This document shows, in pieces, positions 1-58,745 of a DNA stretch of 64,000 bases; the stretch's first letter is position 1, and every line of letters starts with the position of its first letter. The DNA is taken from the NCBI GenBank assembly GCA_018062765.1, contig JAGORR010000001.1, forward strand, positions 217,249 to 281,248. Direction: 5' to 3'. The notes beneath the pieces were generated by a model. It searched no databases. It saw nothing but the letters and a program-made list of their open reading frames with translations, and was not told the origin of the DNA. Position numbers and translations under genes: made by a program. The stretch is from Minisyncoccota bacterium (lineage in GTDB: Bacteria; Patescibacteriota; Minisyncoccia; Phycocordibacterales; Phycocordibacteraceae).

Positions 1-269
1 AACATTGTGACCGATGATACGAGTGCAGAAAATTTCTCACGTACGTTTCCTGCGAGCTCTGCTGCTGATGATTCTGAAAGATAGGTCCCCGCAGCCATTG
101 AGAATGCCTCTACAAAAATAAGCACAGTGCCGGTAAGTAAGATGGTCTCAACTGGCACACCTGCGAGTGCGATGCCGGACAGAAGCCCAACCGTGGAGAC
201 GAGGCTATCCTCGACACCGAATATGAAGTTCCTGAAATGCGCGATGGTACGCGCTTCGTGCGTACGCAT
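1..269 (-). CDS. VIT1/CCC1-family Fe/Mn transporter, N-terminal part (gene runs off window start)
   Basis: Minus-strand translation from ATG (complement 267-269): MRTHEARTIAHFRNFIFGVEDSLVSTVGLLSGIALAG...ILLTGTVLIFVEAFSMAAGTYLSESSAAE. The DSLVST and AFSMA.G.Y motifs are typical of the VIT family. Not in the ORF track because it runs off the edge. Confidence 0.55.
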   Translation of the reverse strand, partial: MRTHEARTIAHFRNFIFGVEDSLVSTVGLLSGIALAGVPVETILLTGTVLIFVEAFSMAAGTYLSESSAAELAGNVREKFSALVSSVTM

Positions 270-271
270 AA

Positions 272-493
272 CTAAAGTTTCTCAATCTCCTTTAAGTCCT
301 TATCGGGCAGATAAAGGAGGAGAAGGCCAAGTATGATGCCGCCTATCGCAGTTACCGTATGGTCGCCCGCAAAGAGCCACAGGTCGATGCTGTCCGCCAC
401 ATACCAAATACCACGCCAAATAAGCACAAGGCCTATGGCGATCGGTACGCTTCGAGCCAGCTGCCGAAAAAAAGAATAGTGAGCCTGAGTCAT
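272..493 (-). CDS. small hydrophobic membrane protein, hypothetical
   Basis: 73-aa ORF with two predicted TM helices, directly upstream of and co-oriented with the VIT gene. Confidence 0.35.
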   Translation of the reverse strand: MTQAHYSFFRQLARSVPIAIGLVLIWRGIWYVADSIDLWLFAGDHTVTAIGGIILGLLLLYLPDKDLKEIEKL

Positions 494-495
494 GA

Positions 496-1185
496 TTAGA
501 AATCAGAAAGTTCTCGCAGGGAGCGGTTGCGGTGGATGAGCTCGTCGTTTCGAACGAGCTCGAAGAACTCGTACTCGCTTCTTACGTTCCTTCCGTAGAA
601 GTCGAGGAACTCCGACATAATCGGCCGGTCCTTAAGGGTTTCCTCATTTTGCTCAAGGAACCGAGAGTATTCCTCATACGCGTGGCGCTCGAAGGCATAA
701 TTAAGCTCGTGCGCAGTCTTCCGGGAGAAGAGGTAGATAAGGAAGGTCGCGACGAAGTAGAAGAAGGCAAACAGGAATGGAATCACGGTGTGCCGTACCA
801 CTCCGGCGCAGCGGTACTTACGCACGAGCTGGCTCAACACGACGACGTGCATCGTTTCGTTATCCTGCGCCATACGGCAGAAGGCCCGAGTTTTGGCGAG
901 CTCCATGGCGCGCTTCTCGTTCGTGTAGAAAAGCGTCAGCAGGGTATAGGTCGCGATTTCCCAGGACTGATACGGGACCCGGGCGATGACCTCTATCGCT
1001 TTGAACTTTTCATAGGATGGCCTTCTGCCGTAGAAAACGGTACCCGCAGCAATAAGTAGCCAGCCGAGGGCTCCTGCAACTATGTTTACGCGGTAGTCGT
1101 CATAGGGGCGCGCGTATTCCGTCCTGAGGGCGGGCTCAAGCAGGGTGCGCGCAAGCTCCTCGTGTTCAGCGTAGCTCTCGGTCAT
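496..1185 (-). CDS. alternative oxidase (AOX/PTOX)-like di-iron carboxylate protein
   Basis: Four-helix di-iron ligand pattern in the correct order: IEVIARVPY (E), DNETMHV (ExxH), FERHAYEEY (E/ExxH), RNDELIHRN (ExxH). These resemble AOX LET..VPG, NERMHL, LEEEA, RADEAHH. Confidence 0.55.
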   Translation of the reverse strand: MTESYAEHEELARTLLEPALRTEYARPYDDYRVNIVAGALGWLLIAAGTVFYGRRPSYEKFKAIEVIARVPYQSWEIATYTLLTLFYTNEKRAMELAKTRAFCRMAQDNETMHVVVLSQLVRKYRCAGVVRHTVIPFLFAFFYFVATFLIYLFSRKTAHELNYAFERHAYEEYSRFLEQNEETLKDRPIMSEFLDFYGRNVRSEYEFFELVRNDELIHRNRSLRELSDF

Positions 1186-1304
1186 TTTCTAAAAGCCTAA
1201 CACGGCCGCTCTATAGGCAGTGCCTGCCTATTGACCTTGGCGCCATGAGGAGTAGTTTCCTAAGCAGGGACGCCGTTCCTGGGAAAATCAACAGGGGATT
1301 ACAG

Positions 1305-2015
1305 ATGAAAATGCTCGTCGTAGAACCCGACCGCAGTACGTCGGATAGCATACAGATGTTTCTCTCGTCCGAGGGTTTCGTCGCCGACTTCACAGACCTC
1401 GGGGAAGATGGCATCGATATCGCGAAACGCTATGAATATGATGCCATTGTCCTCGAGCTTCTGCTCCGGGACATGTCAGGATTTGATGTCATCCGCTCGT
1501 TGCGGGCCGGCAAATGTGATACGCCGATCATTGTGCTCACCGGAACCTCGTCCGTGGAGAACAAGGTCAAGGCTCTCCGGCTTGGCGCGGATGACTATCT
1601 CACCAAGCCGTTCCACAAGGACGAGATGGTCGCTCGCATCCATGCCATCGTGCGCCGCGCGAATCGCATGACGCACTCATCGGTCGCTATCGGCAATATG
1701 GTCGTGGATCTCGCGAATCGGTATGTTACGGTCGACGGCGCATTCGTGCGGCTCGCAGGTCTGCAGTACAGCGTCCTCGAGCTCTTGGTGACGCGCATCA
1801 ACCGGCTCGTGAAGAAGGAGCTCGTGATGGATCACCTCTATGGCGGCCGAGCGGATGAGCCCGACGAAAAAATCGTGAGTGTTATCGTCTGCAAGCTGAA
1901 GCAGAAGCTCGAGGAAGCAGGCTTCGATACTCGCGCAATTGTGAACGTTTGGGGACACGGTTACCGACTCGAGCACTCGCTCGTAAACGGCAGCGCCCCC
2001 ATGTTGACGCACTAA
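1305..2015 (+). CDS. OmpR/PhoB-family response regulator, atypical receiver (phospho-acceptor Asp replaced by Glu)
   Basis: Receiver plus winged-helix domains (LTKPF, GHGYRLE). Aligned to PhoB, DLILLDWMLPG corresponds to DAIVLELLLRD here. Thr and Lys of the receiver are conserved. Internal ATG chosen after a GGGGA RBS. Confidence 0.75.
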   Translation: MKMLVVEPDRSTSDSIQMFLSSEGFVADFTDLGEDGIDIAKRYEYDAIVLELLLRDMSGFDVIRSLRAGKCDTPIIVLTGTSSVENKVKALRLGADDYLTKPFHKDEMVARIHAIVRRANRMTHSSVAIGNMVVDLANRYVTVDGAFVRLAGLQYSVLELLVTRINRLVKKELVMDHLYGGRADEPDEKIVSVIVCKLKQKLEEAGFDTRAIVNVWGHGYRLEHSLVNGSAPMLTH

Positions 2016-2080
2016 CGCTTCGACAAGTCCATGAACAAAAGGGTCACGGTTTAACCGTGGCCCGTTCTCTTTTCATGCAG

Positions 2081-4580: not shown

Positions 4581-4847
4581 ATGCAACAAGCTCACAAGAA
4601 AAGTTTGCTCTCCCGGTTGCGCCGGATCGAAGGCCAAGTTCGGGGCCTTATCCGACTGGTTGAGAAGGATACCTACTGCATAGATGTTATTACCCAAACG
4701 TCGGCAATAAAAAGTGCTCTCTCAAGCGTCGAAGATCTCCTTCTAGAAAATCACTTGGAAACGTGCGCATCGAATCAGATCAAGTCGGGGAATATAAAAA
4801 AGGCGAAGCAGGAGATTCTTGCCGTGTATCGGCTTAAGCGCAAATAG
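4581..4847 (+). CDS. csoR: CsoR/RcnR-family copper-sensing transcriptional repressor
   Basis: 88 aa. RIEGQVRGL, the conserved Cys in YCIDV, and the H..E..C metal ligands (LENHLETC). Confidence 0.8.
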
Positions 4848-4848
4848 C

Positions 4849-7143
4849 ATGAACGATCGTCGAACGTATCGAGTAAAGGGCATGCATTGCGCTTCGTGCG
4901 CAAGCATTATTGAGCGCGCGGTCAAGAAAGTCGATGGAGTAGAGCACGTTGAAGTGAACTACGGCACCGAGACAGCAAAAATCGCCTTTGATGAGAGTAA
5001 AACCAACCCTCACCACCTTTCCGAGCAACTCAAGCCACTTGGCTATTCGTTTGTGGTTCCTACGGCAGAGTCGATGGGAATGTCAGCCGAAGAGCATGCC
5101 GCGCATACGGGACTAGGGCAGTCAAAAGCCGAGAAGCTTGCCGAAATAGAAGAGATGCGATGGAGAGTATTTTCGGTGCTTCCGTTAGCTGCGTTTAGTA
5201 TTTTTGTAATGGGCTGGGAGATGTTCGCTCAGTTGGGCACTCTAAGCCCAATACCGGAAATCTGGAATGAATTTTTCCATCACCTTCTGCCGATCTTTGC
5301 CACGTACACGTTCATTGTCGTAGGAAAGCCGTACGCGCTTGGTTTCTACCGCTTTGTCCGCTACGGCAAGGCGAATATGGATACGCTGATCGGGATAGGC
5401 ACTTCCGTAGCCTTCGTGTACAGCTTCATTCTTTCCGCTTTCGAAGAGCCGCTTCGCCCGTTTCTTAATGTTGATCAGACCTATTACGACGTAACTATTG
5501 TCGTGATCGCGTTTATCGCGCTTGGCAAATACCTCGAAGCTCGTTCGAAGCTCAAGACTGGAGATGCAATCGAGAAACTACTCGGTCTTCAAGCAAAAAC
5601 CGCCTTGGTAGTGAAAAACGGAAAAGAGGTGGAGATTCCAGTAGATCAGGTAGCCCATGGCGATCTCATCGTAGTAAAACCGGGCGGCAAGATACCTGTT
5701 GATGGCGTACTCACCGAAGGCAGTTCGTATGTAGACGAGTCGATGGTCACGGGTGAATCTATGGCAGTCGAAAAGAACGTCGGCGATACGGTCGTGGCAG
5801 GAACCATAAACACCAAGGGACATTTCGTATTTAAGGCTACGAAGGTGGGTTCCGAGACCTTGCTTGCACATATCATCAAGATGGTTGGGGAAGCGCAGGG
5901 AAGTAAGGCGCCCATTCAGGGGCTTGCGGACAAGATTTCAAGCGTGTTCGTCCCCATCGTTCTTGTCTTTTCGATTCTCGTATTTGCCGCATGGCTTCTG
6001 TTTGGCATACCGACACTCGGTCTTGCGCAGGCGCTCACGCTCGGCCTAACCTCGTTTGTGGGTATTTTAGTCATTGCGTGTCCGTGTGCTCTTGGTCTTG
6101 CAACGCCGATTGCCGTAATCGTCGGTGTCGGCAAAGGAGCGCAGGAGGGGATTCTCATCAAGGATGCCGCCACTCTCCAAAAGCTCCGAAGCGTCGATAC
6201 GGTAGTGATTGATAAGACCGGCACCATAACGAAAGGCACGCCGGAAGTGATAGAAGTCGTTGTGCAGGGAAATCGCGGCAAGGACGAATTGATTTCCATC
6301 TTGGCCTCGCTTGAAAAGAAGTCCGAACACCCGCTTGCAACTGCAATCCTTGCATACGCTGAACGTAGAAATATATCGCTCAAATCAGTAGAGCATTTCG
6401 AAATGCTTTCCGGAAGAGGTGTGCGAGGAACTATAGAGGGGGTGGAATACCTCGCGGGTAACACAACGCTCATGCAAGAATACTCCGTTGCATTTGATAA
6501 CTCTTCTCTTAAAGAACGAACCGAGAAAGGAAGGACGCCGGTATTTCTTGCTACGAAGAAAAGTGTTGTTGGGATAGTATTTGTGGCCGATGCGGTAAAA
6601 CCTGAAGCCGTCACTGCCATTCAAAAACTTCATAAGATGGGAATCAAAACCGTTATGCTTACCGGCGATAATCGCCAGACAGCGGAATCTATCGCGAAAG
6701 AAGTCGGTATAGACGACGTGGTGGCACAGATGTTGCCTGACGAGAAGCTCAACAAGATCAAAGAACTTCAAGCCGAGGGGCGTGTGGTCGCAATGGCGGG
6801 GGATGGCGTGAATGATGCTCCTGCACTTGCGCAGGCTGATGTGGGTATTGCCATGGGCACCGGAACCGATGTTGCCATAGAAACCGCAGGCATTACGCTT
6901 CTTGGCGGGGATATTGGGAAGGTCGTAAAAGCGATACGGCTTTCGCGCTTTACCATGACCGGCATTAAGCAAAATCTGTTCTGGGCATTCATCTACAATC
7001 TCGTTGGGATACCGATTGCAGCAGGAATTCTTTATCCGTTTACGGGATGGCTTTTGTCGCCCGTTGTCGCAGGTCTTGCAATGGCGTTTTCAAGCGTGTC
7101 GGTGGTACTCAATTCACTGCGACTAAAAGCCGTTAAACTATAA
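4849..7143 (+). CDS. copA: copper-translocating P1B-type ATPase with an N-terminal HMA domain
   Basis: GMHCASCA (CxxC HMA), TGES, CPC ([10 protein letters not shown]), [18 protein letters not shown] at 4849 directly after the csoR stop. Confidence 0.95.
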
Positions 7144-7150
7144 CTAACTC

Positions 7151-8170
7151 ATGAAATCCTACACTTTCCACGTACACGGGATGCACTGCAATTCTTGCGT
7201 GGTGCTTACCGAGGGTGAACTCAAAGACCATGCGTCTGTAGAGCATGCAGTTGCTGACCTAAAGACGTGCTGCGTCGAAGTTCGAGGTGATTTCGGAGAC
7301 AAAAGCCACACGGAAGTCGCGCAGGAACTCTCGCCGCTTCTTGAAAAGCACGGGTACAAACTCTCCACGGAGAAAGAGCAGAAGGGAGTGAAGTGGTCTG
7401 ATTTTGGTATCGCAGTCCCGGCGACGCTCGGGTTCATGGCATTTTTCGTCATATTGCAAAAGCTCGGGCTGGTGAATCTCGTTTCAAGCGGCGAAGTGAA
7501 TTACGGAACAGCATTCCTCATAGGACTTATTGCTTCCGTCTCGACCTGTATGGCGGTTGTGGGGTCGCTTGTCCTTTCGGTTTCGGCGAACTATGCGAAA
7601 GAAGGGGATAAGGTGCGTCCGCAAGTCCTGTTTCATATCGGACGCCTTGCCGCGTTCTTCCTGCTTGGCGGCATTATCGGCGCGGTCGGTTCAGCGTTTC
7701 AGTTGGGGACAGTCGGCATATTTGTGATGACCTTTGTCGTTGCGCTTGTGATGCTCATACTCGGCATCAACCTGCTTGATATCTTTCCGTGGGCGAAGAA
7801 ACTTCAACCGACGTTTCCGAAGTTCATTTCAAATCACCTACTTGAGATTAAAAAAGTAAACCACACGCTCACACCAGTGTTGCTCGGTATCGTCACATTC
7901 GTTCTCCCATGCGGATTCACGCAGTCAATGCAACTCTACTCACTTACGACGGGAAGCTTCTGGGGAGGGGCAACGACGATGTTCGTATTTGCGCTTGGTA
8001 CTTTGCCAGTACTCGCGCTTTTGAGTTTCGGTTCACTAGGAATTCGCGATAAAGCGACATCAAGCGTGTTCTTCAAGACGGCGGGACTGGTCGTGATCAT
8101 ATTCGCCCTCATGAATCTGGTAAATAGCTTCGTGATAATTGGGTTCATACCACCTATCTTTAATTTCTAG
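7151..8170 (+). CDS. HMA metal-binding domain fused to a DsbD_2/CcdA-like two-cysteine transmembrane domain
   Basis: N-terminal GMHCNSC HMA fold. Six or more TM helices, with conserved Cys in the TM segments (ASVSTCMAVVG and VLPCGFTQ). Confidence 0.55.
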   Translation: MKSYTFHVHGMHCNSCVVLTEGELKDHASVEHAVADLKTCCVEVRGDFGDKSHTEVAQELSPLLEKHGYKLSTEKEQKGVKWSDFGIAVPATLGFMAFFVILQKLGLVNLVSSGEVNYGTAFLIGLIASVSTCMAVVGSLVLSVSANYAKEGDKVRPQVLFHIGRLAAFFLLGGIIGAVGSAFQLGTVGIFVMTFVVALVMLILGINLLDIFPWAKKLQPTFPKFISNHLLEIKKVNHTLTPVLLGIVTFVLPCGFTQSMQLYSLTTGSFWGGATTMFVFALGTLPVLALLSFGSLGIRDKATSSVFFKTAGLVVIIFALMNLVNSFVIIGFIPPIFNF

Positions 8171-8174
8171 TACC

Positions 8175-8570
8175 ATGGATACGAGCATGAAAGCGACTAT
8201 TGCGGCAGTTATTTTCGGAGGGCTTTTGATCGGTGGAGCATTGCTTCTCTCGGGTAGTTCCGCTACTGACGCTGTCGAGGGAGTCAATGTGAGCGTAGTT
8301 GATGGGAAACAAATAATCGAAATTGGTGCCAAGGGAGGTTATTCTCCGAGAGAGACTATTGCAAAAGCAGACATCCCAACAGTCCTGCGCGTTGCAACGA
8401 AAGGAACGTTCGATTGTTCGTCGGCACTTACTATCCCGGCGATTGGATATCAAAATAGTCTGCCTCCCTCCGGTACTACCGACATAGAAATTCCTCCACA
8501 AAAACCCGGTACGACTCTCCAGGGACTCTGTGCGATGGGAATGTACAACTTTTCCATTAAATTTAACTAG
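8175..8570 (+). CDS. membrane-anchored cupredoxin-like protein (putative Cu-binding), hypothetical
   Basis: N-terminal TM anchor, beta-rich domain, Cys/Met cluster (FDCSS, GLCAMGMY). Position in the cop operon. Homology is tentative. Confidence 0.35.
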   Translation: MDTSMKATIAAVIFGGLLIGGALLLSGSSATDAVEGVNVSVVDGKQIIEIGAKGGYSPRETIAKADIPTVLRVATKGTFDCSSALTIPAIGYQNSLPPSGTTDIEIPPQKPGTTLQGLCAMGMYNFSIKFN

Positions 8571-8635
8571 GGAGCCCCGCCGCATCCTCGCGGCGGGATA
8601 TGCGCGCACGGGTGGGGGCAAGCATGTATGAATTT

Positions 8636-17385: not shown

Positions 17386-19179
17386 CTACGCATTTTTAAA
17401 CAGGTACACATAGTTGCCGTACCCCTCTTCCTCCATCGACTCCTTAGGAACAAAGCGGAGCGAAGCTGAGTTAGTGCAGAACCGTCTCCCGCCTTCGTCT
17501 ACGGGGCCGTCTTCAAATACGTGTCCGACGTGTCCGGCGTCGCTCCGTATCTCGGTTCGTGTCGTCGAGAGCGAGTTGTCTTCATGCATCGTGACCGAAT
17601 CGTCATCAATGGTGCGCCAGAAGCTCGGCCATCCGGTTCCGGAGTCGTACTTGTGAGTACTTGAAAAGAGCGGCTTGCCCGTCACGATATCGACGTAGAT
17701 TCCTTCTGCCTTATTGTCCCAATACTTGTTATTGAATGGCGACTCGGTGCCGCTCTCTGCAACGACGTGGTAGGCGAGCGGGTCGAGGTGCTTGAGCTTC
17801 TCCACGATTTCCTCGTCGGTATATTCGTACGCGGCGCGCGATTCCGTTGCGGCGGCTTCTTGCTTGGACTCGAGAAACTGTATGGCAGCGTCCTTGGCCC
17901 ATGTCTCCTCAACGAATCCGGCTCTTCCTGATGCCTTCTTGTAGCGTTCGTAGTGGTCAGCTGCTTTCTGATAGTAATCCTGATGGTACGTTTCTGCCTC
18001 AAAGAATGTGGTGAGTGGGATAATTTCGGTGGCGATTGGCGCAGTAAAAAGTCCGCTCTTCTCCAAACGACTTTTTGAATCGAGCGCTGCTTCCTTCTGC
18101 TCGTCGTTTTGATAGAAAATCGCGGTCGTGTACTGGAAGCCCGTGTCAGCAAACTGCCCATCGGTGTCGGTCGGGTCGATGTGTGACCAGTAGATGTCGA
18201 GTATCTCTTCAGTCGTGATGATTTCCGGGTCATAGGTTATCTGCACCGACTCTCGATGCTTGGTCGCTCCCGTCGCAACCGTGATATACGAGGCAGTCAC
18301 TGCATCGCCTCCGGCGTACCCAGAGATCGCACTAACAACACCCGGCTGCTCCTGAAAGTAAGCTTCAGTGCACCAGAAGCATCCTCCGGCAAGGGTAATC
18401 ACTTCATGCACTCCATCTGCGCGCTTCTCATCCTCATTCATGCTGGTGGGAGCGAATCGCTCGATAAGGTTGTTCTCGAGCTGTATCGTCGCGCCGTACC
18501 CAGAATCGAGGATGAATGTCTCTATCTTCTTGTCGAATCCAGTTAGTATCGCGACTCCGACGAGGATAATTAGAACACCGAAGACCTGCTTTATTTTTCC
18601 GGCAGCGTGCATGCGGGAATCAAGTGCGGTAACGATGCGCTGCCCGAAGTACGCGATAGCAAGGAGCGCGAGCGCGAGTCCGAACGTGAAGCCAAGAAGG
18701 TACAGGAGGCCGGTGAGGAAGGTCGCAGGGAGCGCAGTCGCGATGATGAAGAGGTACGTGGGCGAGCAAGTGGTAAACACAGGACCAAGCGCGAGTCCTA
18801 TGAGAGCGTCACCCGCATAACTCTTCTTGCCGTACCCGGCACCTACCGCCTTGTTACTCGCGCGGCTCAACGCGTTCACGAGCGGCACGCGCGCCCAGAG
18901 CGCAGGGAACACAATTGCGATACCTACCAGAATCACGATGCTGCCTGAGAACCAGCTCCAGAATGCGGTTGGGATATCGATAAGAAGCGTCGATGCCTTA
19001 AGTAGCAAGGTGAAGACGATAACCGATACCGAGAGTGAGCCGATGACCACGACGGCGCGCTTCGAGATGTACCGCCCATCGTTCTCCGAGGCACCTATGA
19101 CGACCGGCAAGAAGGGGAGTATGCACGGCGCGAGCACCGTGAATACGCCCGCCAAGATTGATATGCCGAGGAAGATCAT
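17386..19179 (-). CDS. msrAB: CcdA-like thiol-disulfide transmembrane domain fused to MsrA and MsrB
   Basis: N-terminal six-TM CcdA/DsbD domain (APCILPFLP, TTCSPTYL). MsrA domain with GCFWC; MsrB/SelR domain with the GTGWPSF, HxGHVF and RFC motifs. Start chosen at MIFLGISIL, immediately after the upstream gene's stop. Confidence 0.9.
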   Translation of the reverse strand: MIFLGISILAGVFTVLAPCILPFLPVVIGASENDGRYISKRAVVVIGSLSVSVIVFTLLLKASTLLIDIPTAFWSWFSGSIVILVGIAIVFPALWARVPLVNALSRASNKAVGAGYGKKSYAGDALIGLALGPVFTTCSPTYLFIIATALPATFLTGLLYLLGFTFGLALALLAIAYFGQRIVTALDSRMHAAGKIKQVFGVLIILVGVAILTGFDKKIETFILDSGYGATIQLENNLIERFAPTSMNEDEKRADGVHEVITLAGGCFWCTEAYFQEQPGVVSAISGYAGGDAVTASYITVATGATKHRESVQITYDPEIITTEEILDIYWSHIDPTDTDGQFADTGFQYTTAIFYQNDEQKEAALDSKSRLEKSGLFTAPIATEIIPLTTFFEAETYHQDYYQKAADHYERYKKASGRAGFVEETWAKDAAIQFLESKQEAAATESRAAYEYTDEEIVEKLKHLDPLAYHVVAESGTESPFNNKYWDNKAEGIYVDIVTGKPLFSSTHKYDSGTGWPSFWRTIDDDSVTMHEDNSLSTTRTEIRSDAGHVGHVFEDGPVDEGGRRFCTNSASLRFVPKESMEEEGYGNYVYLFKNA

Positions 19180-19180
19180 C

Positions 19181-19678
19181 CTAGATAATTTGGGCGAGTG
19201 CGCCTGCGAGCGTTGGACTGCCGCTCCACTTCTTAATGAGTGTGCCGTCGGCGGCAACCTGCACGAGGGTGTGCTGGTACGTCACGCCATATTTCTTCTT
19301 GAGCTCTGACTCCGTATCGTAGTCAACCTTCAGTATGCTGACCTCTTCCGGTATGGAGTCTCGATTGGCCTCGATATCGGCATTAAGCCCGCGACATGAC
19401 GGGCACCAAGAGGCGTGGAAAAACAGAACGACATCACCGCTCTCCGCGCGAGCAAGTTTTTCAGCCGAGTACGATTCATAGGAGCCTTTCATCATCGACT
19501 CCTTTTCGTCCATCATGCCAGTGTCTTCCTTCATCATCTTGTCTTCTTCCATGCTCGAAGATTCCTGCATCTTCTTATCCATCATTCCGTCCTCAGGCTT
19601 CTGTATGGACGCGTAGGCGACTCCTCCAATCAATACAATGAGTACAAGTCCGATGGCGACTACGATGGTTTTGTTCAT
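19181..19678 (-). CDS. membrane-anchored thioredoxin-like protein with a Met-rich linker
   Basis: TM anchor, a 45-aa segment with 13 Met (MMDKKMQESSSMEEDKMMKEDTGMMDEKESMMK), then a Trx fold with WCPSC. Confidence 0.75.
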   Translation of the reverse strand: MNKTIVVAIGLVLIVLIGGVAYASIQKPEDGMMDKKMQESSSMEEDKMMKEDTGMMDEKESMMKGSYESYSAEKLARAESGDVVLFFHASWCPSCRGLNADIEANRDSIPEEVSILKVDYDTESELKKKYGVTYQHTLVQVAADGTLIKKWSGSPTLAGALAQII

Positions 19679-23964: not shown

Positions 23965-24045
23965 GTACCGCGTAGCGGGCCGCAAAACCGGGTGAAAGCC
24001 CGGTTTTGCTATACTTATGTCACGTTGTCCCTAACGCGCATCCCT

Positions 24046-24534
24046 ATGCAAAAGATCATCCCAAATCTCTGGTTCGACGGGAAGGTGGAAGAAGCCGTGG
24101 ATTTCTACATCTCCGTATTCAAGGAGGGAAAGGTCCTCTCAACGCTGCGCTACGGCGCGTCGAGCGCCGAGGTCTCAGGCCAGCCTGAAGGCTCGATACT
24201 CACGATCGAATTCGAGCTCAAGGGGCAGAAGTTCGTCGCGATAAACGGCGGTCCTCTCTTCAAGTTCAGCGAGGCGGTCTCGTTCCAGATTGATTGCGCC
24301 GATCAGGCGGAAGTCGATTACTTCTGGGAGAAATTGACTGCGGACGGCGGAGAAGAGAGCCAGTGCGGCTGGCTCAAGGATAAGTACGGGCTGTCGTGGC
24401 AGGTCGTACCGGTCGGATTTACCGAAATGGTGAACCGGGGCGAGCCCGAGAAGCTCGAGCGGGCGATGAAGGCGATGCTCGAGATGAAGAAGCTCGATCT
24501 CGCCGCGCTTGAAGCTGCGTATAACGGCGCGTAA
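24046..24534 (+). CDS. VOC-superfamily PhnB-like protein (3-demethylubiquinone-9 3-methyltransferase-like domain)
   Basis: IIPNLWFDGKVEEAVDFYISVF...GWLKDKYGLSWQVVP signature. Internal ATG chosen. Confidence 0.65.
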   Translation: MQKIIPNLWFDGKVEEAVDFYISVFKEGKVLSTLRYGASSAEVSGQPEGSILTIEFELKGQKFVAINGGPLFKFSEAVSFQIDCADQAEVDYFWEKLTADGGEESQCGWLKDKYGLSWQVVPVGFTEMVNRGEPEKLERAMKAMLEMKKLDLAALEAAYNGA

Positions 24535-26404: not shown

Positions 26405-27091
26405 GTGATTATTCAATCAATGGCCCTGGGTAATATAACGAGTCAAGTAATCTCAAAACAACGTGTTTCCGACCATGGTGAGGTACTAACGGCTGAGCGA
26501 GAGGTAAACGCCATGCTCGACATGGTGCGCCATGAGACCGAACGCATTGACTCCCGTTTCCTCGAGCCAGCTTGCGGCACAGGCAATTTCCTAGCTCCAG
26601 TGTACGAAAAAAAGCTTGCCGTCATTAAAAAGCGCTACGGTAAAAGCCAGCTAGAGTTTGAACGCTACGCCGTTACAGGCACAGGCTCCATCTATGGAGT
26701 GGACATTCTTGAGGACAACATAAAACTCTGCCGCAAGCGCCTGTTCGACATCTTTAACGAGCTCTACACGGCGCTCTACAAGAAAAGAAGCAAGGATGCT
26801 GTCCGCAGTGCAGTCCGCTTTGTTCTCAACAGAAACATTTTGTGGGGTGATGCACTTTCTCTTAAAACGGTGTCAAAACAGCCGATGCCCATCGTGTTCT
26901 CCGAGTGGTCTATGGTACGCGGTAGCATGATGAAAAGGCGCGACTTCTCGTTTGAGGAGCTTATGCCCGACAGCGCGGCAAAAGTGAGCCTGTTCAAGCA
27001 AGCAGAAATATCCGATCTTGGGACACCAGCGTTCATACCGACCCCTGTAAAAGAGTACCCACTTACTCATTTCCTTTCACTACACGTATGA
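26405..27091 (+). CDS. Eco57I/gamma-class N6-adenine DNA methyltransferase homolog lacking catalytic motif IV (SAM-binding pseudo-methyltransferase?)
   Basis: Motif X-like HGEVLTAEREV and a canonical motif I FLEPACGTGNFL. The expected (D/N)PP(Y/F) position reads NRNILWGD. 228 aa; may start at the internal ATG at 26420. Confidence 0.55.
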   Translation: MIIQSMALGNITSQVISKQRVSDHGEVLTAEREVNAMLDMVRHETERIDSRFLEPACGTGNFLAPVYEKKLAVIKKRYGKSQLEFERYAVTGTGSIYGVDILEDNIKLCRKRLFDIFNELYTALYKKRSKDAVRSAVRFVLNRNILWGDALSLKTVSKQPMPIVFSEWSMVRGSMMKRRDFSFEELMPDSAAKVSLFKQAEISDLGTPAFIPTPVKEYPLTHFLSLHV

Positions 27092-28578
27092 AAGTTCCGA
27101 CGAGCTACAACCCCGATGTTCTTACGTGTCTTGCCAACCTTAGCAACGACGAGGTGTTCACACCGCCAGCGTTGGTGAACCAAATACTCGACACCTTGCC
27201 GTCCGAAATTTGGCGAGACAAAACTGCCACTTTTCTTGATCCAGTCTCTAAGACAGGTGTTTTTCTGCGCGAAATAGTCCGCCGCCTCAATGATGGTCTG
27301 GTCAAAGAAATCCCCGACGCACAAGCACGGCTCGATCATATTTACACCAAGCAGGTGTTCGGCATCGCCATCACCGAGCTCACGGCACTGCTCTCGCGAC
27401 GCTCGCTTTACTGCTCGAAAGACGCAAGCGGCAAGTATTCAGTAAGTGAGGCGTTCAAAAGTGCTGACGGCAATGTACGCTTCGAGCGCACCGAGCATAG
27501 CTGGAAAGACGGTAAATGTGCCTTCTGTGGTGCAGGCCAGGCCGAGTATGATCGCGCCGAGGCGCTTGAGACCCATGCTTACCAGTTTATTCACACCGAC
27601 AACCCTAGTACACTGTTTAATAATATGAAGTTTGATGTAATTGTCGGCAATCCACCATATCAGTTGAGCGATGCTGGCGATAGCACGGGCGCATCGCCGA
27701 TATATCAACTCTTTGTTGAGCAAGCAAAGAAACTTCAACCACGCTTTTTGACAATGATTATTCCGTCGCGTTGGTTTGCAGGAGGGAAAGGGCTTGAGGG
27801 TTTTCGTGAAGATATGTTGAACGACGGACGAATCTCACATTTGGTGGACCATCCAATCGCGTCAGATGTTTTCCCCGGTATCAAATTGAATGGTGGTGCT
27901 TGCTATTTCCTATGGAATCGCGAATATCAGGGAGAATGCGAAGTAACCATAAAGATGAGCGGCATGGAGGATACAACAAAACGGCGACTCAATCAGTTCG
28001 ATACATTTGTTCGTTTCAACAAGGCAATCTCAATTTTGGATAAGGTGCAGTCGAAAAAGTATTCATCGTTGAGTGAGCTGGTATCACGACAAAAGCCGTT
28101 TGGACTCCGTACTTTTGAGCGTCCAACAGGAAAGGGTACTGTAAAGCTATACGCGAACAAAACCATTGGAAAGATTGAAAAGTCTGCAATAACCGTCGGG
28201 TTCGATATGTTGGATTCGTGGAAAGTATTTATTTCGATGGGCTATGGTGAAGGTGGCGAGGCGCGCGAATATCCGCGCATGATTTTGGGTAAACCCATCG
28301 TTGCTGCCCCGGGAATTGCATGTACAGAGACATATATTGTTGTTGGGAAATATAAGACAGAAAAAGAGGCAGAAAATCTTGCTAAATATTTACAAACGAA
28401 GTTCTTGCGATTCTTGGTCGCTCTTCGTAAAAACACGCAACACGTTACTAGAGATCGGTTTTTATTTGTGCCCGATTTGCCAATGAAAGAAGAATGGACA
28501 GACGAAAAGCTTAACAAGCTTTTCCGTCTGACAAAAGAGGAGATCGAATTCATTGACATGATCGTTCGTCCCATATAG
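27088..28578 (+). CDS. N6-adenine DNA methyltransferase, gamma class (Eco57I family)
   Basis: Motif X DEVFTPPALV, motif I region LDPVSKTGVFL (non-canonical), motif IV VIVGNPPYQ; 496 aa; start overlaps the upstream stop (ATGA). Confidence 0.8.
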   Translation: MKVPTSYNPDVLTCLANLSNDEVFTPPALVNQILDTLPSEIWRDKTATFLDPVSKTGVFLREIVRRLNDGLVKEIPDAQARLDHIYTKQVFGIAITELTALLSRRSLYCSKDASGKYSVSEAFKSADGNVRFERTEHSWKDGKCAFCGAGQAEYDRAEALETHAYQFIHTDNPSTLFNNMKFDVIVGNPPYQLSDAGDSTGASPIYQLFVEQAKKLQPRFLTMIIPSRWFAGGKGLEGFREDMLNDGRISHLVDHPIASDVFPGIKLNGGACYFLWNREYQGECEVTIKMSGMEDTTKRRLNQFDTFVRFNKAISILDKVQSKKYSSLSELVSRQKPFGLRTFERPTGKGTVKLYANKTIGKIEKSAITVGFDMLDSWKVFISMGYGEGGEAREYPRMILGKPIVAAPGIACTETYIVVGKYKTEKEAENLAKYLQTKFLRFLVALRKNTQHVTRDRFLFVPDLPMKEEWTDEKLNKLFRLTKEEIEFIDMIVRPI

Positions 28579-28580
28579 CT

Positions 28581-31094
28581 ATGGCCGATTTTTTTCCGCC
28601 ACGGCCGGAGGCAAAGCCTACTATCTACGCCTACAAGCTCAAAGGTGTGGAAACGCATGCTCATCTCCTCAAGGTGGGCTACACGACGCGCGATGCGCAA
28701 AGCCGCATTGCCGAACAGCTCACCACCGCGCGTTTGCAATACGAAATTGTTTTTGAAGAACCGGCTATGCGTGCCGATGGTTCGACATTTACAGATACCG
28801 ACGTGCATCGCCACTTGCGCGGAAAGCGCATCACGAATCCGGAAGGAGAGTGGTTTGAGTGTGGAGTGAAAGACGTGCGAGCAGCGTACGTTGCCATACG
28901 AGAGGGTGTGTTCAACGAAGAAAACCGCACACAAACATTCGGAATGCGCCCAGAGCAAGCCGATGCTGTGGTAAAAACCGCCGCGTATTTTACCGAGGCG
29001 CATGCTGACGGCAAGCAAACACCGCATTTTTTATGGAATGCCAAAATGCGCTTCGGGAAAACATTCACCACGTACCAGCTCGCCAAAAAGATGGGATGGA
29101 GGAGGGTGTTAGTGCTCACCTTTAAGCCCGCCGTGCACAATTCCTGGCACGAGGATTTGATGAACCATGTAGATTTTGAGGGATGGCAGTTTGTCTCGCG
29201 ACGGGGGAATACGCTCAATCATGCTGACATTGATGAAAAGAAACCATTTGTCGTATTTGGTTCGTTCCAGGATTTTCTCGGAAAAAACAGCGCAGGCGGG
29301 ATAAAAGCAAAGAATGAGTGGGTACACGAGACAACATGGGATGCTGTCGTCTTTGATGAATACCACTATGGTGCGTGGCGCGAGAGCGCGAAGGATTTGT
29401 TTGTCGGTGAGGAAAAAGACGTACGCAAGGACGAAGAGGGTGAGGCGTTGGAGTACTTTGACGAGCGCGCAGTGCCGATAAAGACCGGCGCGTATCTCTA
29501 CCTTTCGGGTACCCCATTTCGGGCTATTGCGAGCGGAGAATTTATCGAAGAGCAGATTTTCAACTGGACGTACAGTGACGAACAGCGGGCAAAAGAAGAG
29601 TGGGACAGTGCGAAGGGACCCAACCCATATGCGTCGTTGCCACGGATGGTGATGCTCACCTATCAGTTACCTGATGCTATACGTGAAGTGGCGATGGGTG
29701 GGGAGTTCAATCAGTTTGATTTGAGCCAGTTTTTTGCTGCAGAAGGAAAGGGCAAGAGCGCGAAATTTTTGTATAAAGACGAAGTGCAAAAGTGGCTGGA
29801 TTTGATTCGCGGTGCGTTTGCTGAAACTACCGTAGACAATTTGAAGCTGGGAGCGAAGAAGCCTGCGTTGCCGTTTTCTGACACGCGGCTTTTGAATGTG
29901 CTATCGCACACGTTTTGGTTTTTGCCGAGTGTAGCGGCCTGTCATGCTATGGCGAATTTGCTCAAGCAACGACAGAACAAGTTTTTTAACGAGTACGAGG
30001 TGATTGTGGCAGCGGGTACGGCGGCGGGAATTGGCGTGGCGGCGCTTGAGCCTGTGCTGAGGAAGATGGGCGAGCCCTTGAAGACGCGCACAATTACGCT
30101 TTCGTGCGGCAAACTGACGACGGGTGTATCCGTGAAGCCATGGACAGGTATTTTTATGCTGCGCAATGTAGCGAGCCCCGAGACATATTTTCAGGCGGCT
30201 TTTCGCGTGCAGACACCGTGGACTGTGCCGAATCCGGAGGGCAACGCGCCAAATCGTGAAGAAATCATCAAGCAGGAATGCTATGTTTTCGATTTTGCTC
30301 CGGATCGCGCTTTGCGACAGATTGCCGAGTATAGTTCTAGACTCAATTTGGATGATTCGGTCAGTCCCGAGAAAAAGGTGGAGGAGTTTATTCACTTCTT
30401 GCCGGTCTTGGCCTATGACGGAAGCGCGATGAATCAGATAGACGCGGCGGGAATTTTGGATATGGCGATGAGCGGGACCACTGCCACGTTGCTTGCGCGG
30501 CGTTGGGAGAGTGCGCTTTTGGTGAATGTCGACAACTATACTCTGGCGCGCTTGATGAACAGTGATGAAGCGATGCAGGCATTGATGAGTATTGAAGGCT
30601 TTCGTGCTCTGAATCAAGATATTGAGACTATCATCAACAAGTCCGGTGTGGTGGAGAAACTGAAAAAAGAAGCGAACGATCGGACGTTGACGAAGAAAGA
30701 AACAGAGTCATTGAGCGACGCCGAAAAAGAATTGAAGGGCAAGCGTAAGCAGGTGCAGGAAAAGCTCATCAAATTTGCAACTCGCATTCCGGTGTTTATG
30801 TATCTCACCGACTACCGCGAGCATACTTTGAAGGACGTAATCAATGAGCTTGAGCCGGACTTGTTTAAACGCGTTACCGGTCTTACTAAAAAGGACTTCG
30901 AGCTCTTGGTGAGCTTAGGTGTATTCAACGATTCGTTGATGAACGACGCGGTTTACAAATTCCGTCGATATGAGGATGCGAGTTTGGCGTACACCGGCAT
31001 AAACAGGCACGAAGGGGAGAATGTTGGTCTTTTTAGCACAGTCCTTTCTGTAAAAGAATACGACCAAACATTCATAAATACTCCAGAAGAGTAG
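28581..31094 (+). CDS. GIY-YIG (T5orf172-like) nuclease domain fused to an SF2 (SNF2/ResIII-like) helicase
   Basis: N-terminus TIYAYKLKGVETHAHLLKVGYTTRD...EGEWFE. Helicase motifs: Q-like TFGMRPEQADAV, I NAKMRFGKTFT, II VVFDEYHYG, III LSGTPF, V LTTGVSV, VI QAAFRVQTP. 837 aa. Confidence 0.6.
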   Translation: MADFFPPRPEAKPTIYAYKLKGVETHAHLLKVGYTTRDAQSRIAEQLTTARLQYEIVFEEPAMRADGSTFTDTDVHRHLRGKRITNPEGEWFECGVKDVRAAYVAIREGVFNEENRTQTFGMRPEQADAVVKTAAYFTEAHADGKQTPHFLWNAKMRFGKTFTTYQLAKKMGWRRVLVLTFKPAVHNSWHEDLMNHVDFEGWQFVSRRGNTLNHADIDEKKPFVVFGSFQDFLGKNSAGGIKAKNEWVHETTWDAVVFDEYHYGAWRESAKDLFVGEEKDVRKDEEGEALEYFDERAVPIKTGAYLYLSGTPFRAIASGEFIEEQIFNWTYSDEQRAKEEWDSAKGPNPYASLPRMVMLTYQLPDAIREVAMGGEFNQFDLSQFFAAEGKGKSAKFLYKDEVQKWLDLIRGAFAETTVDNLKLGAKKPALPFSDTRLLNVLSHTFWFLPSVAACHAMANLLKQRQNKFFNEYEVIVAAGTAAGIGVAALEPVLRKMGEPLKTRTITLSCGKLTTGVSVKPWTGIFMLRNVASPETYFQAAFRVQTPWTVPNPEGNAPNREEIIKQECYVFDFAPDRALRQIAEYSSRLNLDDSVSPEKKVEEFIHFLPVLAYDGSAMNQIDAAGILDMAMSGTTATLLARRWESALLVNVDNYTLARLMNSDEAMQALMSIEGFRALNQDIETIINKSGVVEKLKKEANDRTLTKKETESLSDAEKELKGKRKQVQEKLIKFATRIPVFMYLTDYREHTLKDVINELEPDLFKRVTGLTKKDFELLVSLGVFNDSLMNDAVYKFRRYEDASLAYTGINRHEGENVGLFSTVLSVKEYDQTFINTPEE

Positions 31095-31103
31095 TAAAAA
31101 TCT

Positions 31104-31991
31104 ATGGCACTTTTTCAATCAAAAAACGATAAGGTTACACAGGTCGGTATAGACCTGTCGCAATTTAGAAACGAGGCTGCCCTACGAGATTTTTTTGCTG
31201 GAAATCTTGAGGAACTTTTAGGACTTCGATTTCTTGCGAATGAATACAGAACCACAGATGGGCGTATAGACACCTTGGCAATTGATGAGGTGGGTACTCC
31301 GGTAATAATTGAGTACAAATGGGATGAGAACGATGCTATTCTCCCGCAAGGCTTGTCCTACATGGCTTGGCTAAAAGACAATAAACGTTTATACGATTTG
31401 CTCGTATCAGATAGACTAGGGAAAGATATCAAAGTGTTTTGGGACATTCCGCGTCTCATTCTTGTAGCACAGCGCTTTGATCGTCGCACGCTCGCTGCCG
31501 CCGGAGAAGCGAAAAATAGTGTTGAACTCATTAAATATACACCTTACGACTCGGGCATATTACATCTTGAAACAGTTTACGGTTCTGAAAAAGTAAGAAC
31601 AGTTTCAGAAACAGTAGCTAAATTGTCATCAAAAGGTGTCAAATATTCTCTCGACCATCATTTAAATAGGGTAAACGAGGATGTTAAGCAGATGTTCTAC
31701 GCTCTTCAAGCAGAAATTCTTAAATGGACAAACGTAGACGAGAGGATCGATCAAAAAGTAGGGATAACGTATCGTACGACCAAGAGTTTCGTCCGTTTCG
31801 AGTTCGGTAAGAGCTATGTGAATGTTTTGGTACGAGACCCACGCTACGATCACAAAATTGACCCGAAAGGTCTATTGAAGGATGTGTCCTCGTTCGGCTG
31901 GGGTTATAAGGGGGTTGCTAAATTGAAATCGAAAGAGGATGTACAGGATGTTCTTGAGTTAGTGCGGGCATCGTACGAATCTACCCTATAA
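31104..31991 (+). CDS. PD-(D/E)xK (NucS/DUF91-like) nuclease domain plus a DUF5655-like C-terminal domain protein
   Basis: GRIDTLAIDEVGTPVIIEYKWDE fits a D...(E/D)xK core. C-terminal region resembles DUF5655. 295 aa. Confidence 0.45.
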   Translation: MALFQSKNDKVTQVGIDLSQFRNEAALRDFFAGNLEELLGLRFLANEYRTTDGRIDTLAIDEVGTPVIIEYKWDENDAILPQGLSYMAWLKDNKRLYDLLVSDRLGKDIKVFWDIPRLILVAQRFDRRTLAAAGEAKNSVELIKYTPYDSGILHLETVYGSEKVRTVSETVAKLSSKGVKYSLDHHLNRVNEDVKQMFYALQAEILKWTNVDERIDQKVGITYRTTKSFVRFEFGKSYVNVLVRDPRYDHKIDPKGLLKDVSSFGWGYKGVAKLKSKEDVQDVLELVRASYESTL

Positions 31992-38949: not shown

Positions 38950-41900
38950 ATGACTCATATTACTTTCGCTTCGCGATCGGCTATCGCCCGATTCGCAAGC
39001 GCGCTCACGGTGTTCGCGCTCGTCGCGACACCGTTCATGACTCTTATTCCTGCATCGGCGCATGCGACCGCGCCGACACCAGCAAGCATTTCGATTGATA
39101 CTGTCGAAGATGATAATGGCTCATATACTTCGCCTTTTGATTTCTCATGCCCTGTAGATGGTAATGAAGGAGAAATAACCATCTACGGTAGCGGAGCGAG
39201 CGCAAGCAACTCCCCGGGGCAGATTGAAGACTATGCCGTTGCAATAGATTGGGGAGATGGGAGCGCAACAACCACAGATCTTGGCACGTTCACTCCTCCT
39301 TCAGGGACGTCTACGTTCACGTACGAATTCACAGCTTCCCATTCGTATTCCTCCTACGGACCAAAAACTGTCACTGCATACCTTTACCATGGAAGCCTAA
39401 ATGGAAACGATGGTGATGCTGTGGCGACAATCACTTTATCTCCTTGCAGCACCGATCCGGGTGTGACCACCGACGCTGCAGACAACATCAGCCACACGGA
39501 CGCTACTATGCACGGTACCAACGGGCCTGTAGCAGCGACAAACTCCTCGTACTGGGTCTCCCTTGCGCCGATTGATACCGGCTCGTCCTCCATTCCGCCA
39601 GGCGTCTACTCAACCCCGACTCAGGGAGCGGTAGCTGCTAATGGCGCCCTTGCCGGGACGCCCCTTTCTTCTGTCGCGACTTCCGGCATCCCAGGAAACA
39701 TCCCAGGCGGTATACAACCAGATACCACGTACTACTTCGTTGCGTGGATCGAAGTCGGCGGAGACTGGTATCCGGGCGAAGTCCTCTCTGTCACGACCCT
39801 CCCTGATCCTGAAGTACCGCCGGCCTGCGGAATCATGGATAACACCACGTTCGACGGATTCTCTCTCGGCAGCGTAAACGGCCAGGGCGGATGGGGTATA
39901 ACCGGTCCCTACGACCACGCTATCGTCGATAACACCTACGGCTTCCCAACTTTCGGTTGTAAGACGCTTCGTATCTCGAACGCCGTAACCGCTGGTTCGT
40001 TCGGTGACCAAATCTTCTCCTACTCAGTCGCCAACGAGGCAGGTGAGACTGTTGCTGAGAATAACGGCATGTCAGGGGGTACTCGCCAGGAGCGCTTCGA
40101 GGCAGAGTTCGATATCGCCTCCGCTGATGCAGACGTTTACCAGCCGGGCCTCGCTGTCACTGTCTCTCCCGACCGGGGTGATGGCGCTCGCATGAGCTAT
40201 CTTCGCTTCGAGGATTCCCCGGACGGTATCGATGTCTATTTCTACGACGTGCAGAGCTCGACTGATCCTGCGAACTTCGTCCAGACCCAGATCGCAAATG
40301 ATCTTCCGCGCACCTCGCCGCACACGGTGAAGCTCGTCATGGATTTCGTTGACGGCCCGGTAAGTCCGGCAGCGCTCCCTGCGAACGATGTCGTCGAAGT
40401 CTTCATCGACGGCGTCTCCGAGCATATCGGGACAAGCTGGGAAAACTATTACCGCTACGATAATGAGTCGAACCCTGGCCTTATCGACACGAGCCGCACC
40501 GTCGACTCGCTCCTCTTCCGTGTCGCTGGCACGGCTGCTCCGGAAACGGATGAGGAGGGCTTCCTCTTCGACAATGTCTCCATAGAGACCGGCCCTACAC
40601 CAGGCCCTGTCGTAGAGACCTCGACCGTGACCCTCTGTAAGTACGCAGACACGTACCCCGAGGAGACTCCACTCCCAGGATGGACGCTCACTCTTACCGG
40701 CGACACCGTACAGGAAAGTTTCGCCGTCCCTGTTGCAGACCCTGTAGGTGTTAACTCAAATCCTCTCGTAGCCGGAGTTTCCTACGTGGCAACGGCGATG
40801 GGTACTTGGCTCAATGACCGGCCAGATGATGCGCCTGAAGGAAACGATGTCGACGCTGAGTACTCGACGATCGACGAGTGGGTAACCCAGATGGACGGCT
40901 ACGACGGATTCGGTACCAATATCCTTGAGCTCGAGATCAATGAGACCGATGGCGAGTGGGGTACATACAACAGCAGCCATACGTACGCACAGGCCTTCAC
41001 CGTTGCTGCTGACGGCCCTGCGAACTTCCGGATCTTCGATGGCGACGGTGCGCATGTTCAGCAGCCAAGCTGGTTTGCCGACAACAAAGACAGCACGCTC
41101 GAAGTAGAGATCTCCGAAGGATATGCCGGCGTAACTGGAGAGAACGGCTGCGTAACGTTCGAAGATGTGCCATTCGGTAGCTACGAAGTAGGCGAGGTCA
41201 TGCAGGACGGCTGGGAGAACGAATCCGGACTTGGCGAGGTAACGGTGGATGAGGAGGAAATGGTCTTCGATGTCGTCAATCATAACGACGACTTCGGCAA
41301 TGATTCCTGCATGCTCGTAAGCGACACAACGACCCTCGAGGGTGGTACTGCTTCCGACCTCGTGCCGGAGCCGCATCATGAATCATGGACCGCCGTAGTA
41401 GACATGCTCGCGATGTGGATCTGGGGAGATGAGGAAGTCACTGATCCGACTGGTGAGGAGACTCAGGTCTTCACGAAGACGTTCTGGCTTGAGTCCGTAC
41501 CAGCGTCTGACGCGACCCTGGTCATCGGAGCCGATAACTCGTACGAAGTCGAACTCAATGGCACTCCAGTGGGTAACGATGCCAACGAGGACAACTACAC
41601 TAACGCTGAAAAGGACACGATTACGATTCCTATGGCGGACTTCGAGCTCGGTGCGAACACGCTCGTCTTCACGGTGAAGAACATCGCGTTTGGCGGCGGC
41701 ACGCAGGAGACGAATCCGGCCGGACTCATCTACAAGCTCACTATCCCAGGAACGGAGTGTCAGCAGACGCCTCCTGACCAGGCGGAGCTACAGGTCCACA
41801 TCTACAAGTACATCCAGGATGAGAACGATGCTATAGCGCTCGCAACCGAGGGAAGCTTCCCAATGAGCGCGACCTGGGACGCTGCCAACATCGGCGCGGG

Positions 41901-46339: not shown

Positions 46340-46410
46340 ACATGCGACCCGGCGCTACGCGCCGGGTTTTCTGTTTTCCATACTTCATCCACCCCGTTAT
46401 ACTGGAGCAA

Positions 46411-58744: not shown

Positions 58745-58745
58745 T

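Follow-up and report, generated by a model that had tools for sequence, protein, structure and literature searches.

Receiver domains that have lost active-site residues account for several percent of all receivers, with Glu as the commonest replacement of the acceptor Asp (PMC12632262). ChxR from Chlamydia and HP1043 (HsrA) from Helicobacter are OmpR-family regulators of reduced genomes which lack the acceptor Asp and function as phosphorylation-independent dimers, and HP1043 also provides a precedent for an atypical regulator of this family that binds inverted repeats (PMC3960148). For CtrA, the exchange D51E is known as the classical phosphomimetic allele (PMC10589892). In some pseudo-receivers, phosphomimicry by a Glu at the acceptor site has been disproved, and the mechanisms of their activation are largely unknown (PMC12632262). 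This paper deals with a locus in a stretch of 64,000 nucleotides from contig JAGORR010000001.1 (assembly GCA_018062765.1; the whole stretch is called the window), in which the gene for a CtrA-like regulator with Glu at the acceptor position is transcribed divergently from the gene for a membrane protein resembling the alternative oxidase (AOX).

For AOX in Patescibacteria, almost nothing was found in the literature that was searched. A single AOX homologue from the candidate phyla radiation has been reported, likely acquired by transfer from proteobacteria (PMC9540462), and a large survey described the Patescibacteria as ancestrally devoid of oxygen reductases, with only heme-copper and bd oxidases being screened (PMC7507113). 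The best explanation of the locus as a whole, to which we assign a probability of about 0.6, is that the oxidase and the regulator are two separate things which are neighbours in one genome of the Patescibacteria (Ca. Pacebacteria). For both proteins, 100% identical copies exist in the databases, and the same gene order was identified in GCA_017991435.1 and in the Logan assembly of SRR11088469.

The AOX-like protein and its subfamily in Patescibacteria

The AOX-like protein was matched by the Pfam model for AOX, PF01786, with 36.6 bits (E 4.7e-9; profile positions 55-209 of 216), the gathering threshold of this model being 22.7 bits. A second match, to COQ7, remained below the threshold (19.6 bits, cutoff 23.5). 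In an alignment of 26 members of the subfamily with identities of 59-79%, the residues E65, N109-E110-x-x-H113, E166, Y173 and D214-E215-x-x-H218 were invariant. The proposed ligands of the di-iron site are distributed over four helices, which contribute E, ExxH, E and ExxH in turn as in AOX and PTOX enzymes, and Y173 is located seven residues after E166. In the trypanosomal AOX, we take the corresponding ligands to be E123, E162/H165, E213 and E266/H269 (numbering of Shiba et al. 2013, 3VV9), and the essential Tyr is Y220, likewise seven residues past the third ligand Glu. The ligands and the Tyr of the two proteins were matched by motif and spacing, without residue-level superposition.

An AlphaFold model of the protein was obtained with a pLDDT of 82.3 and a pTM of 0.84. 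When the PDB was searched with this model by Foldseek, the top 12 matches were all trypanosomal AOX (probability 1.00, TM 0.49-0.57). Behind these, the list fell off sharply to helical bundles of other kinds: the remaining matches had a probability of <=0.10, except for weak bacterioferritin-type bundles reaching up to 0.30, and COQ7 did not appear. Judged from sequence and predicted fold, the protein truly belongs to the AOX/PTOX family of membrane di-iron proteins, although it is a distant member. The original prediction had described an AOX/PTOX-type protein with four helices carrying the E and ExxH motifs, to be checked against PF01786, and this description is confirmed by the profile score, the invariant ligands and the trypanosomal AOX fold. 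With the trypanosomal enzyme (PDB 3VV9), the protein shares the four-helix di-iron core; the Asn and the Asp preceding ligands 2 and 4 and the Tyr following the third Glu are kept as in AOX and PTOX, and its hydrophobic helices fit an association with the membrane. However, the protein is short with its 229 amino acids, and the long N-terminal arm seen in trypanosomal AOX is missing. It also differs from known AOX and PTOX proteins in its host, a lineage generally thought to be devoid of quinone synthesis and of a respiratory chain, and in that its Patescibacteria subfamily is often organized in an operon with a gene similar to FAD-linked D-2-hydroxyacid dehydrogenases.

Matches to the subfamily were identified in more than 1300 protein clusters, mostly from Patescibacteria, and among the GTDB species representatives 280 carry it. 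Of these 280 carriers, the best 80 are essentially all Patescibacteria, namely Paceibacterota/Parcubacteria, Kaiserbacteria, Nomurabacteria and Moranbacteria. AOX had been described before as sporadic in bacteria; for this subfamily, that view does not hold, since it is common in Patescibacteria. Some of its proteins carry the automated names 'ubiquinol oxidase' or 'alternative oxidase', and the oxidase of the window is a member of this already annotated but uncharacterised subfamily.

Gene order was analysed for 80 GTDB loci containing AOX (L011-L090). In 32 of them, a protein of about 550 amino acids with FAD_binding_4 and FAD-oxidase_C domains is encoded upstream of AOX on the same strand, and in 19 of the 32 the gap between both genes is smaller than 150 bp. 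This FAD protein was first met beside AOX at L003:3325-5696, L004:2586-5696 and L005:3318-5696. It is matched by the FAD-binding (N-terminal) half of YdiJ with 253 bits and by GlcD with 184-191 bits, and it thereby resembles FAD-linked D-2-hydroxyacid dehydrogenases of the E. coli YdiJ and GlcD type. However, its scores fall far short of the equivalog cutoffs, and it has no counterpart of the Fe-S half of YdiJ. The gene order suggests that in the related genomes a route of two enzymes leads from a D-2-hydroxyacid to O2, with the FAD dehydrogenase as the likely electron donor of AOX. In the genome analysed here, no copy of this dehydrogenase was identified in the 74 kb examined.

The AOX-like protein is predicted most likely to reduce O2 to water with the electrons of a membrane quinol, without the pumping of protons. 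Its role would likely be the scavenging of oxygen or the reoxidation of a flavoprotein, rather than the conservation of energy. If this is true, the subfamily, which is present in hundreds of species of Patescibacteria, represents a testable candidate for the consumption or detoxification of O2 in some of these ultra-small, supposedly non-respiring symbionts, and the source of their quinone becomes a question. The pairing of the flavoprotein with AOX, which is conserved across the Patescibacteria, is one of two by-products of this analysis that are of more interest than the divergent gene pair.

The CtrA-like regulator and its pseudo-receiver

The start of the regulator gene was assigned to the ATG at 1305 and not to position 1245. 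The resulting protein of 236 amino acids has an identical entry in the databases (P0121), its alignment with all relatives begins at the first residue, and the sequence AGGGGA is present 8 nt upstream. Both domains of an OmpR-family regulator were identified, the receiver (PF00072, 80.7 bits) and Trans_reg_C (PF00486, 52.8 bits), and the protein was aligned over its full length to DrrD (1KGS). The best NCBIfam model is the one for CtrA, NF045991, with 251.5 bits, while the next family reached 149 bits, so that CtrA is the best match by 100 bits. However, the equivalog cutoff of this model is 350 bits, and the identity to alphaproteobacterial CtrA is about 52% over the full length. For bona fide CtrA orthologs an average identity of 74% was reported, and the most divergent complementing ortholog named, the one from Rickettsia, has 58% (PMC9437464). 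Because of its lower identity and its score below the cutoff, the regulator is, by its sequence, CtrA-like without being a CtrA ortholog. The receiver is aligned to that of CtrA free of gaps, and the DNA-binding motifs HLYGG..DEP and CKL-x-x-KL are conserved, whereas D51 and D8 are lost and the protein is encoded in a genome of the Patescibacteria. It also lacks the C-terminal Ala-Ala ending of CtrA. In Caulobacter CtrA, this Ala-Ala is the degron for ClpXP.

For a comparison of the receiver, gapless alignments to the receiver of Brucella CtrA (4QPJ), to DrrD (1KGS) and to 3Q9S were used. In the alignments to all three solved receivers, the position of the acceptor Asp is occupied by Glu51, Pro8 is located opposite the second Asp of the acidic pocket (the Mg ligand at the position of CheY D13), and Arg55 replaces a conserved Pro, while E7 (DD1), T79 and K101 are kept. 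In a word-indexed search, the acceptor column contained Asp in 118 of 123 aligned rows, nearly all of them CtrA-like. The dimerisation face alpha4-beta5-alpha5, formed by residues 87-118, has about 78% identity to Brucella CtrA by manual count. With Pro at the DD2 position and Glu at the D position, the protein falls under the published definition of a pseudo-receiver (PMC12632262), two of the five catalytic residues being lost. On the basis of the alignments, phosphotransfer by the regulator is very unlikely.

No histidine kinase or Hpt domain, as expected for partners in a CckA-ChpT phosphorelay of CtrA, was identified among the about 40 open reading frames (ORFs) of the window that were checked or among the genes of the adjoining 9.5 kb on the left, together roughly 50 of the larger genes in 74 kb. 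The original prediction had proposed an OmpR-family regulator that is divergent to AOX, carries Glu in place of the acceptor Asp, retains the conserved Thr and Lys, has no histidine kinase nearby and is independent of a kinase. Most of this is in agreement with the data: the domain composition and the divergent orientation, the exchange at the acceptor site and the two retained residues were found as proposed, no kinase was found among the genes checked in the 74 kb, and the independence of a kinase is well supported by the loss of the two catalytic residues together with this negative result. The receiver had been considered PhoB-like; here, the assignment has to be changed to CtrA as the nearest family.

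In the best explanation, the regulator is a descendant of the CtrA branch of OmpR-family response regulators which, with the acceptor Asp changed to Glu and the Mg-binding Asp changed to Pro, is unable to take part in phosphotransfer. The T/K switch residues are kept, and so are the strongly conserved dimer face and a winged helix like that of CtrA. On this basis, and like ChxR and HP1043, it probably acts as a phosphorylation-independent DNA-binding dimer. The natural E51 corresponds to the laboratory phosphomimetic allele of CtrA, and constitutive activity through phosphomimicry by Glu51 is plausible by this analogy. With ChxR and HP1043 the regulator has in common the OmpR family, the loss of the acceptor Asp and of other active-site residues, a reduced genome and the lack of a kinase nearby. 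In contrast to these proteins, it is of independent origin, from the CtrA branch. Pseudo-receivers with Glu in place of Asp are an already known class, of which the regulator is a new, CtrA-derived member.

When 1.84 billion representatives were scanned in full by HMMER, no relative of the regulator above about 54% identity was identified. Two proteins considered as close relatives, P0122 and P0123, were rejected: both are chimeric assemblies with internal duplications, located on contigs of about 2 kb and derived from ordinary CtrA of alphaproteobacteria, which has Asp51; their top rank calls for caution with similarity rankings. The signature E-P-D with E51, or S, G or A at position 8 with E51, recurs in several independent CtrA-like clusters. 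Relatives with E-P-D (or E-G-D) and Glu51 are P0261 (L010:2712-3404), P0260 (L009:365-1243) and P0248 (L008:8001-9377). P0261 and P0260 are encoded on phage-like contigs, as confirmed by PHROG matches, and P0248 on a fragment of a bacterial chromosome with genes for beta-oxidation. In a rough neighbour-joining tree, in which long-branch effects are possible, the regulator of the window pairs with P0261. It also matches phrog_731, a phage family of full-length OmpR-type regulators, with 175 bits. When 50,697 phage records were searched by tblastn, the best 30 matches all had about 34% identity or less, and many came from contaminated records. The presence of glmS both in the window and at the locus of P0248 was considered as a sign of cotransfer and was rejected, with the glmS of the window having 62% identity to a glmS from Patescibacteria and only 44% to that of the P0248 locus.

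The codon usage of the regulator gene is host-like, and its GC content at third codon positions (0.726) is that of the AOX gene and the same as in core genes. This indicates that the regulator is not a recent arrival, and a recent horizontal transfer is unsupported by composition. The Asp-less CtrA-like proteins may represent mobile, unphosphorylatable mimics of CtrA. If confirmed, the CtrA lineage, which is regarded as a hallmark of the alphaproteobacteria, has Asp-less offshoots elsewhere, including phage-like DNA and a genome of the candidate phyla radiation. The recurrence of Asp-less CtrA-like proteins on phage-like DNA is the second of the two more interesting by-products.

Pairing of the regulator with the oxidase

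The pairing of AOX with the regulator is private to this genome. The regulator was absent from all five AOX neighbourhoods that were inspected by hand, and among the 80 GTDB loci an OmpR-type gene within 5 kb of AOX was found once; this gene is unrelated (32% identity) and is located 4 kb away on the other strand. In the closest relative, glmS is followed by an unrelated gene for 290 amino acids and then by AOX. The slot of the regulator is occupied there by another gene, which indicates that the slot between glmS and AOX is variable. The 290-aa gene was examined as a counterpart of the regulator and was rejected, since it is unrelated to it and belongs to no family. Conversely, no AOX was identified in the contexts of related Asp-less regulators. 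The proposal that the protein is the regulator of the oxidase therefore finds no support in the comparison with other loci. A dedicated phosphomimic regulator of the oxidase is without comparative backing and should not spread as an annotation.

No sigma-70 consensus site was found in the intergenic region (1186..1304). It contains a perfect palindrome, which is located 28-46 nt upstream of the ATG of AOX and 74-92 nt upstream of that of the regulator. The palindrome is unique in the 64 kb, and the spacing of its half-sites is that of the CtrA box. The length of its arms was equalled by 1.3-2.1% of shuffles, but by 32 of 537 (6%) real 119-nt tiles of the window. The CtrA box itself, TTAA-N7-TTAA, occurs 0 times in the 64 kb, where 0.45 occurrences are expected by chance, and was not present in any fetched locus. 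The inverted repeats upstream of related Asp-less regulators have nothing in common with the palindrome of the window.

The support for a control of AOX by the regulator is all positional and consists of the adjacency of the genes and the modestly unusual palindrome; such a control is possible on these grounds. Under this explanation, the Glu51 protein would serve the divergent AOX operon as its dedicated activator (or repressor), always on and acting via the spacer; apart from the arrangement of the genes and the palindrome, it can draw on the phosphomimetic D51E allele of CtrA (PMC10589892). We consider it tentative, because the pairing is private, the closest relative has an unrelated gene in the slot, related Asp-less regulators are not accompanied by AOX, equally long inverted repeats are present in real tiles of the window, and a CtrA box is missing. 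A regulator that is not constitutive deserves about the same limited credence: its pseudo-receiver would be switched by a small ligand, by a partner or anti-activator, by Ser/Thr phosphorylation or by the level of expression, with targets elsewhere in the genome. The activation of pseudo-receivers being largely unknown, and activity in some tested cases being unexplained by the Glu at the acceptor site (PMC12632262), such switching would be in line with the conservation of T79, K101 and the alpha4-beta5-alpha5 face, as if switching still mattered, and with a gene that appears monocistronic with a terminator-like hairpin of its own. However, no partner gene is evident nearby, and tiny genomes favour simple constitutive regulators like ChxR and HP1043. 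That the gene is a decaying, functionless remnant of a horizontally acquired CtrA gene is very improbable. The lack of relatives above about 54% identity, the lost active-site residues and the phage-like contig of the closest relative in the rough tree would fit decay, but the full-length ORF is intact and is accompanied by a Shine-Dalgarno sequence and by a terminator-like hairpin, its codon usage is fully host-like, the dimer face and both DNA-binding motifs are conserved, and the recurrence of E-P-D with E51 in independent clusters argues for selection.

For the oxidase, several points weigh against the reading given above. Searches of the solved structures by sequence, either with the single sequence or with a profile of the 26 sequences, returned nothing relevant, so that the protein is a distant member of the family, connected to AOX by the Pfam profile and the fold search only. 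The TM value of the model against the trypanosomal AOX is about 0.55 at 14-19% identity, and the assignment is based on the profile, on motifs and on a fold that is predicted. In addition, neither a gene for quinone biosynthesis nor a recognised quinone reductase was identified in the 74 kb, and Patescibacteria usually lack quinone biosynthesis. The low identity and the missing quinone genes, together with a COQ7 match lying just under its cutoff, could also be explained by a membrane di-iron enzyme of other chemistry, for example a COQ7-type hydroxylase or an oxidase whose substrate is not a quinol or is directly the neighbouring flavoprotein, which would then be no quinol oxidase. This is unlikely, since the protein scores much higher with the AOX model than with COQ7 and exceeds the cutoff of the AOX model, the high-probability fold matches are all AOX structures with no COQ7 among them, and the Tyr seven residues past the third ligand Glu is invariant.

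A more far-reaching picture, which appears doubtful at present, combines both halves of the locus. It would consist of a widespread, overlooked minimal O2-consuming chain in Patescibacteria, in which electrons pass from the FAD-linked D-2-hydroxyacid dehydrogenase to a quinone, possibly derived from a host, and on to AOX. In one lineage, the oxidase would in addition have come under a domesticated, unphosphorylatable CtrA-like regulator with kin on phage-like contigs, that is, under one of a group of mobile, always-on CtrA mimics.

The AOX operon and other genes of the window

The features of the locus are listed in Table 1. AOX is the first gene of an operon that is private to this genome and also encodes a membrane protein of 73 amino acids and an iron transporter of the VIT1 family. 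On the source contig L006, which maps onto the window, the three genes follow each other in the order AOX, 73-aa gene and VIT1 with gaps of 2 nt. The transporter was matched by the Pfam model VIT1 with 100.1 bits (cutoff 28.1). The 73-aa protein, judged by eye to be membrane-spanning, had no match above the cutoff in Pfam or NCBIfam, and its gene was called in two independent assemblies. Neither of the two genes adjoins AOX in the 80 other loci. The hairpin downstream of the regulator suggests that this gene is monocistronic; the number of terminator-like sites in the region equals the expectation from shuffles.

Table 1. Coordinates and characteristics of the features at the AOX-regulator locus (positions in the window)
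Feature	Position	Strand	Size	Remarks
VIT1/CCC1-family Fe/Mn transporter, 5' part	1..269	minus	full gene 165 aa	continues beyond the left end of the window; third gene in the operon headed by AOX
Hydrophobic protein	272..493	minus	73 aa	begins 2 nt past the AOX stop codon; from the ORF list
AOX-family membrane di-iron carboxylate protein	496..1185	minus	229 aa	PF01786 match, invariant motifs, fold search
Proposed di-iron ligands of the AOX-like protein				E65, E110/H113, E166, E215/H218; plus Y173
Divergent intergenic region	1186..1304		119 bp	should hold both promoters
Perfect palindrome ATAGGCAG-TGC-CTGCCTAT	1213..1231		8+3+8	half-sites 11 bp apart; inferred candidate operator
CtrA-like OmpR-family regulator, pseudo-receiver	1305..2015	plus	236 aa	signature E7-P8-D9, E51, R55, T79, K101
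GC-rich hairpin, T-runs on both strands	2041..2063			terminator-like, common to the convergent regulator and glmS genes; match to consensus pattern

The region around AOX is rich in genes related to metals and oxidative stress, which fits a role of AOX in oxygen scavenging. A copper cluster (4581-8571) encodes a CsoR-type repressor (4581-4847), a CopA P-type ATPase (4819-7143), an HMA-DsbD_2 membrane protein (7151-8170) and, on the plus strand, a protein with a weak cupredoxin-like match (about 8176-8571). On the minus strand at 17386-19678, a thioredoxin-like protein precedes a fusion protein of 623 amino acids, composed of a DsbD-like transmembrane domain, MsrA and MsrB. The pair resembles a module for the repair of methionine sulfoxide in the envelope and fits the theme of oxidative stress around AOX.

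Two genes of the window were considered in relation to quinones. The 554-aa ORF at 46129-47793 codes for a DAO-family FAD oxidoreductase without a specific family, which may act as an oxidase or as a dehydrogenase linked to quinones. Its identification as a GlpD-like quinone reductase was not supported, as the matches obtained were to many different FAD enzymes, all weak and N-terminal, and the true start of the ORF is probably located later, since the domain begins near residue 122. The protein encoded at 23992-24534 was strongly matched by PF06983, a Pfam family named '3-dmu-9_3-mt' (3-demethylubiquinone-9 3-methyltransferase). It was not accepted as a gene for quinone biosynthesis, with no support from NCBIfam; the name is misleading, since PF06983 is a domain of glyoxalase/PhnB-like fold.

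To the left of the window, at a distance of 3.6-9 kb (L006:14782-20220), a large serine recombinase of 544 amino acids (Resolvase/Recombinase/Zn_ribbon_recom), a DUF5659 protein, a protein with an NYN domain and several unannotated small genes were identified, which may constitute an integrated mobile element near the AOX operon. Inside the window, an island of low GC content (26405-31991; 0.42-0.50 compared to about 0.56 elsewhere) contains a pair of MmeI/Eco57I-type methylases, a T5orf172-ResIII helicase of 837 amino acids and a DUF5655 protein. It was probably acquired by horizontal transfer and would serve in restriction or defence. Two further regions (38950-43257 and 57734-61521) are occupied by a protein of 1435 amino acids without a family match and by nearby proteins that contain bacterial Ig, dockerin and cohesin domains, the latter proteins being probably cell-surface or attachment proteins of an episymbiont-type bacterium.

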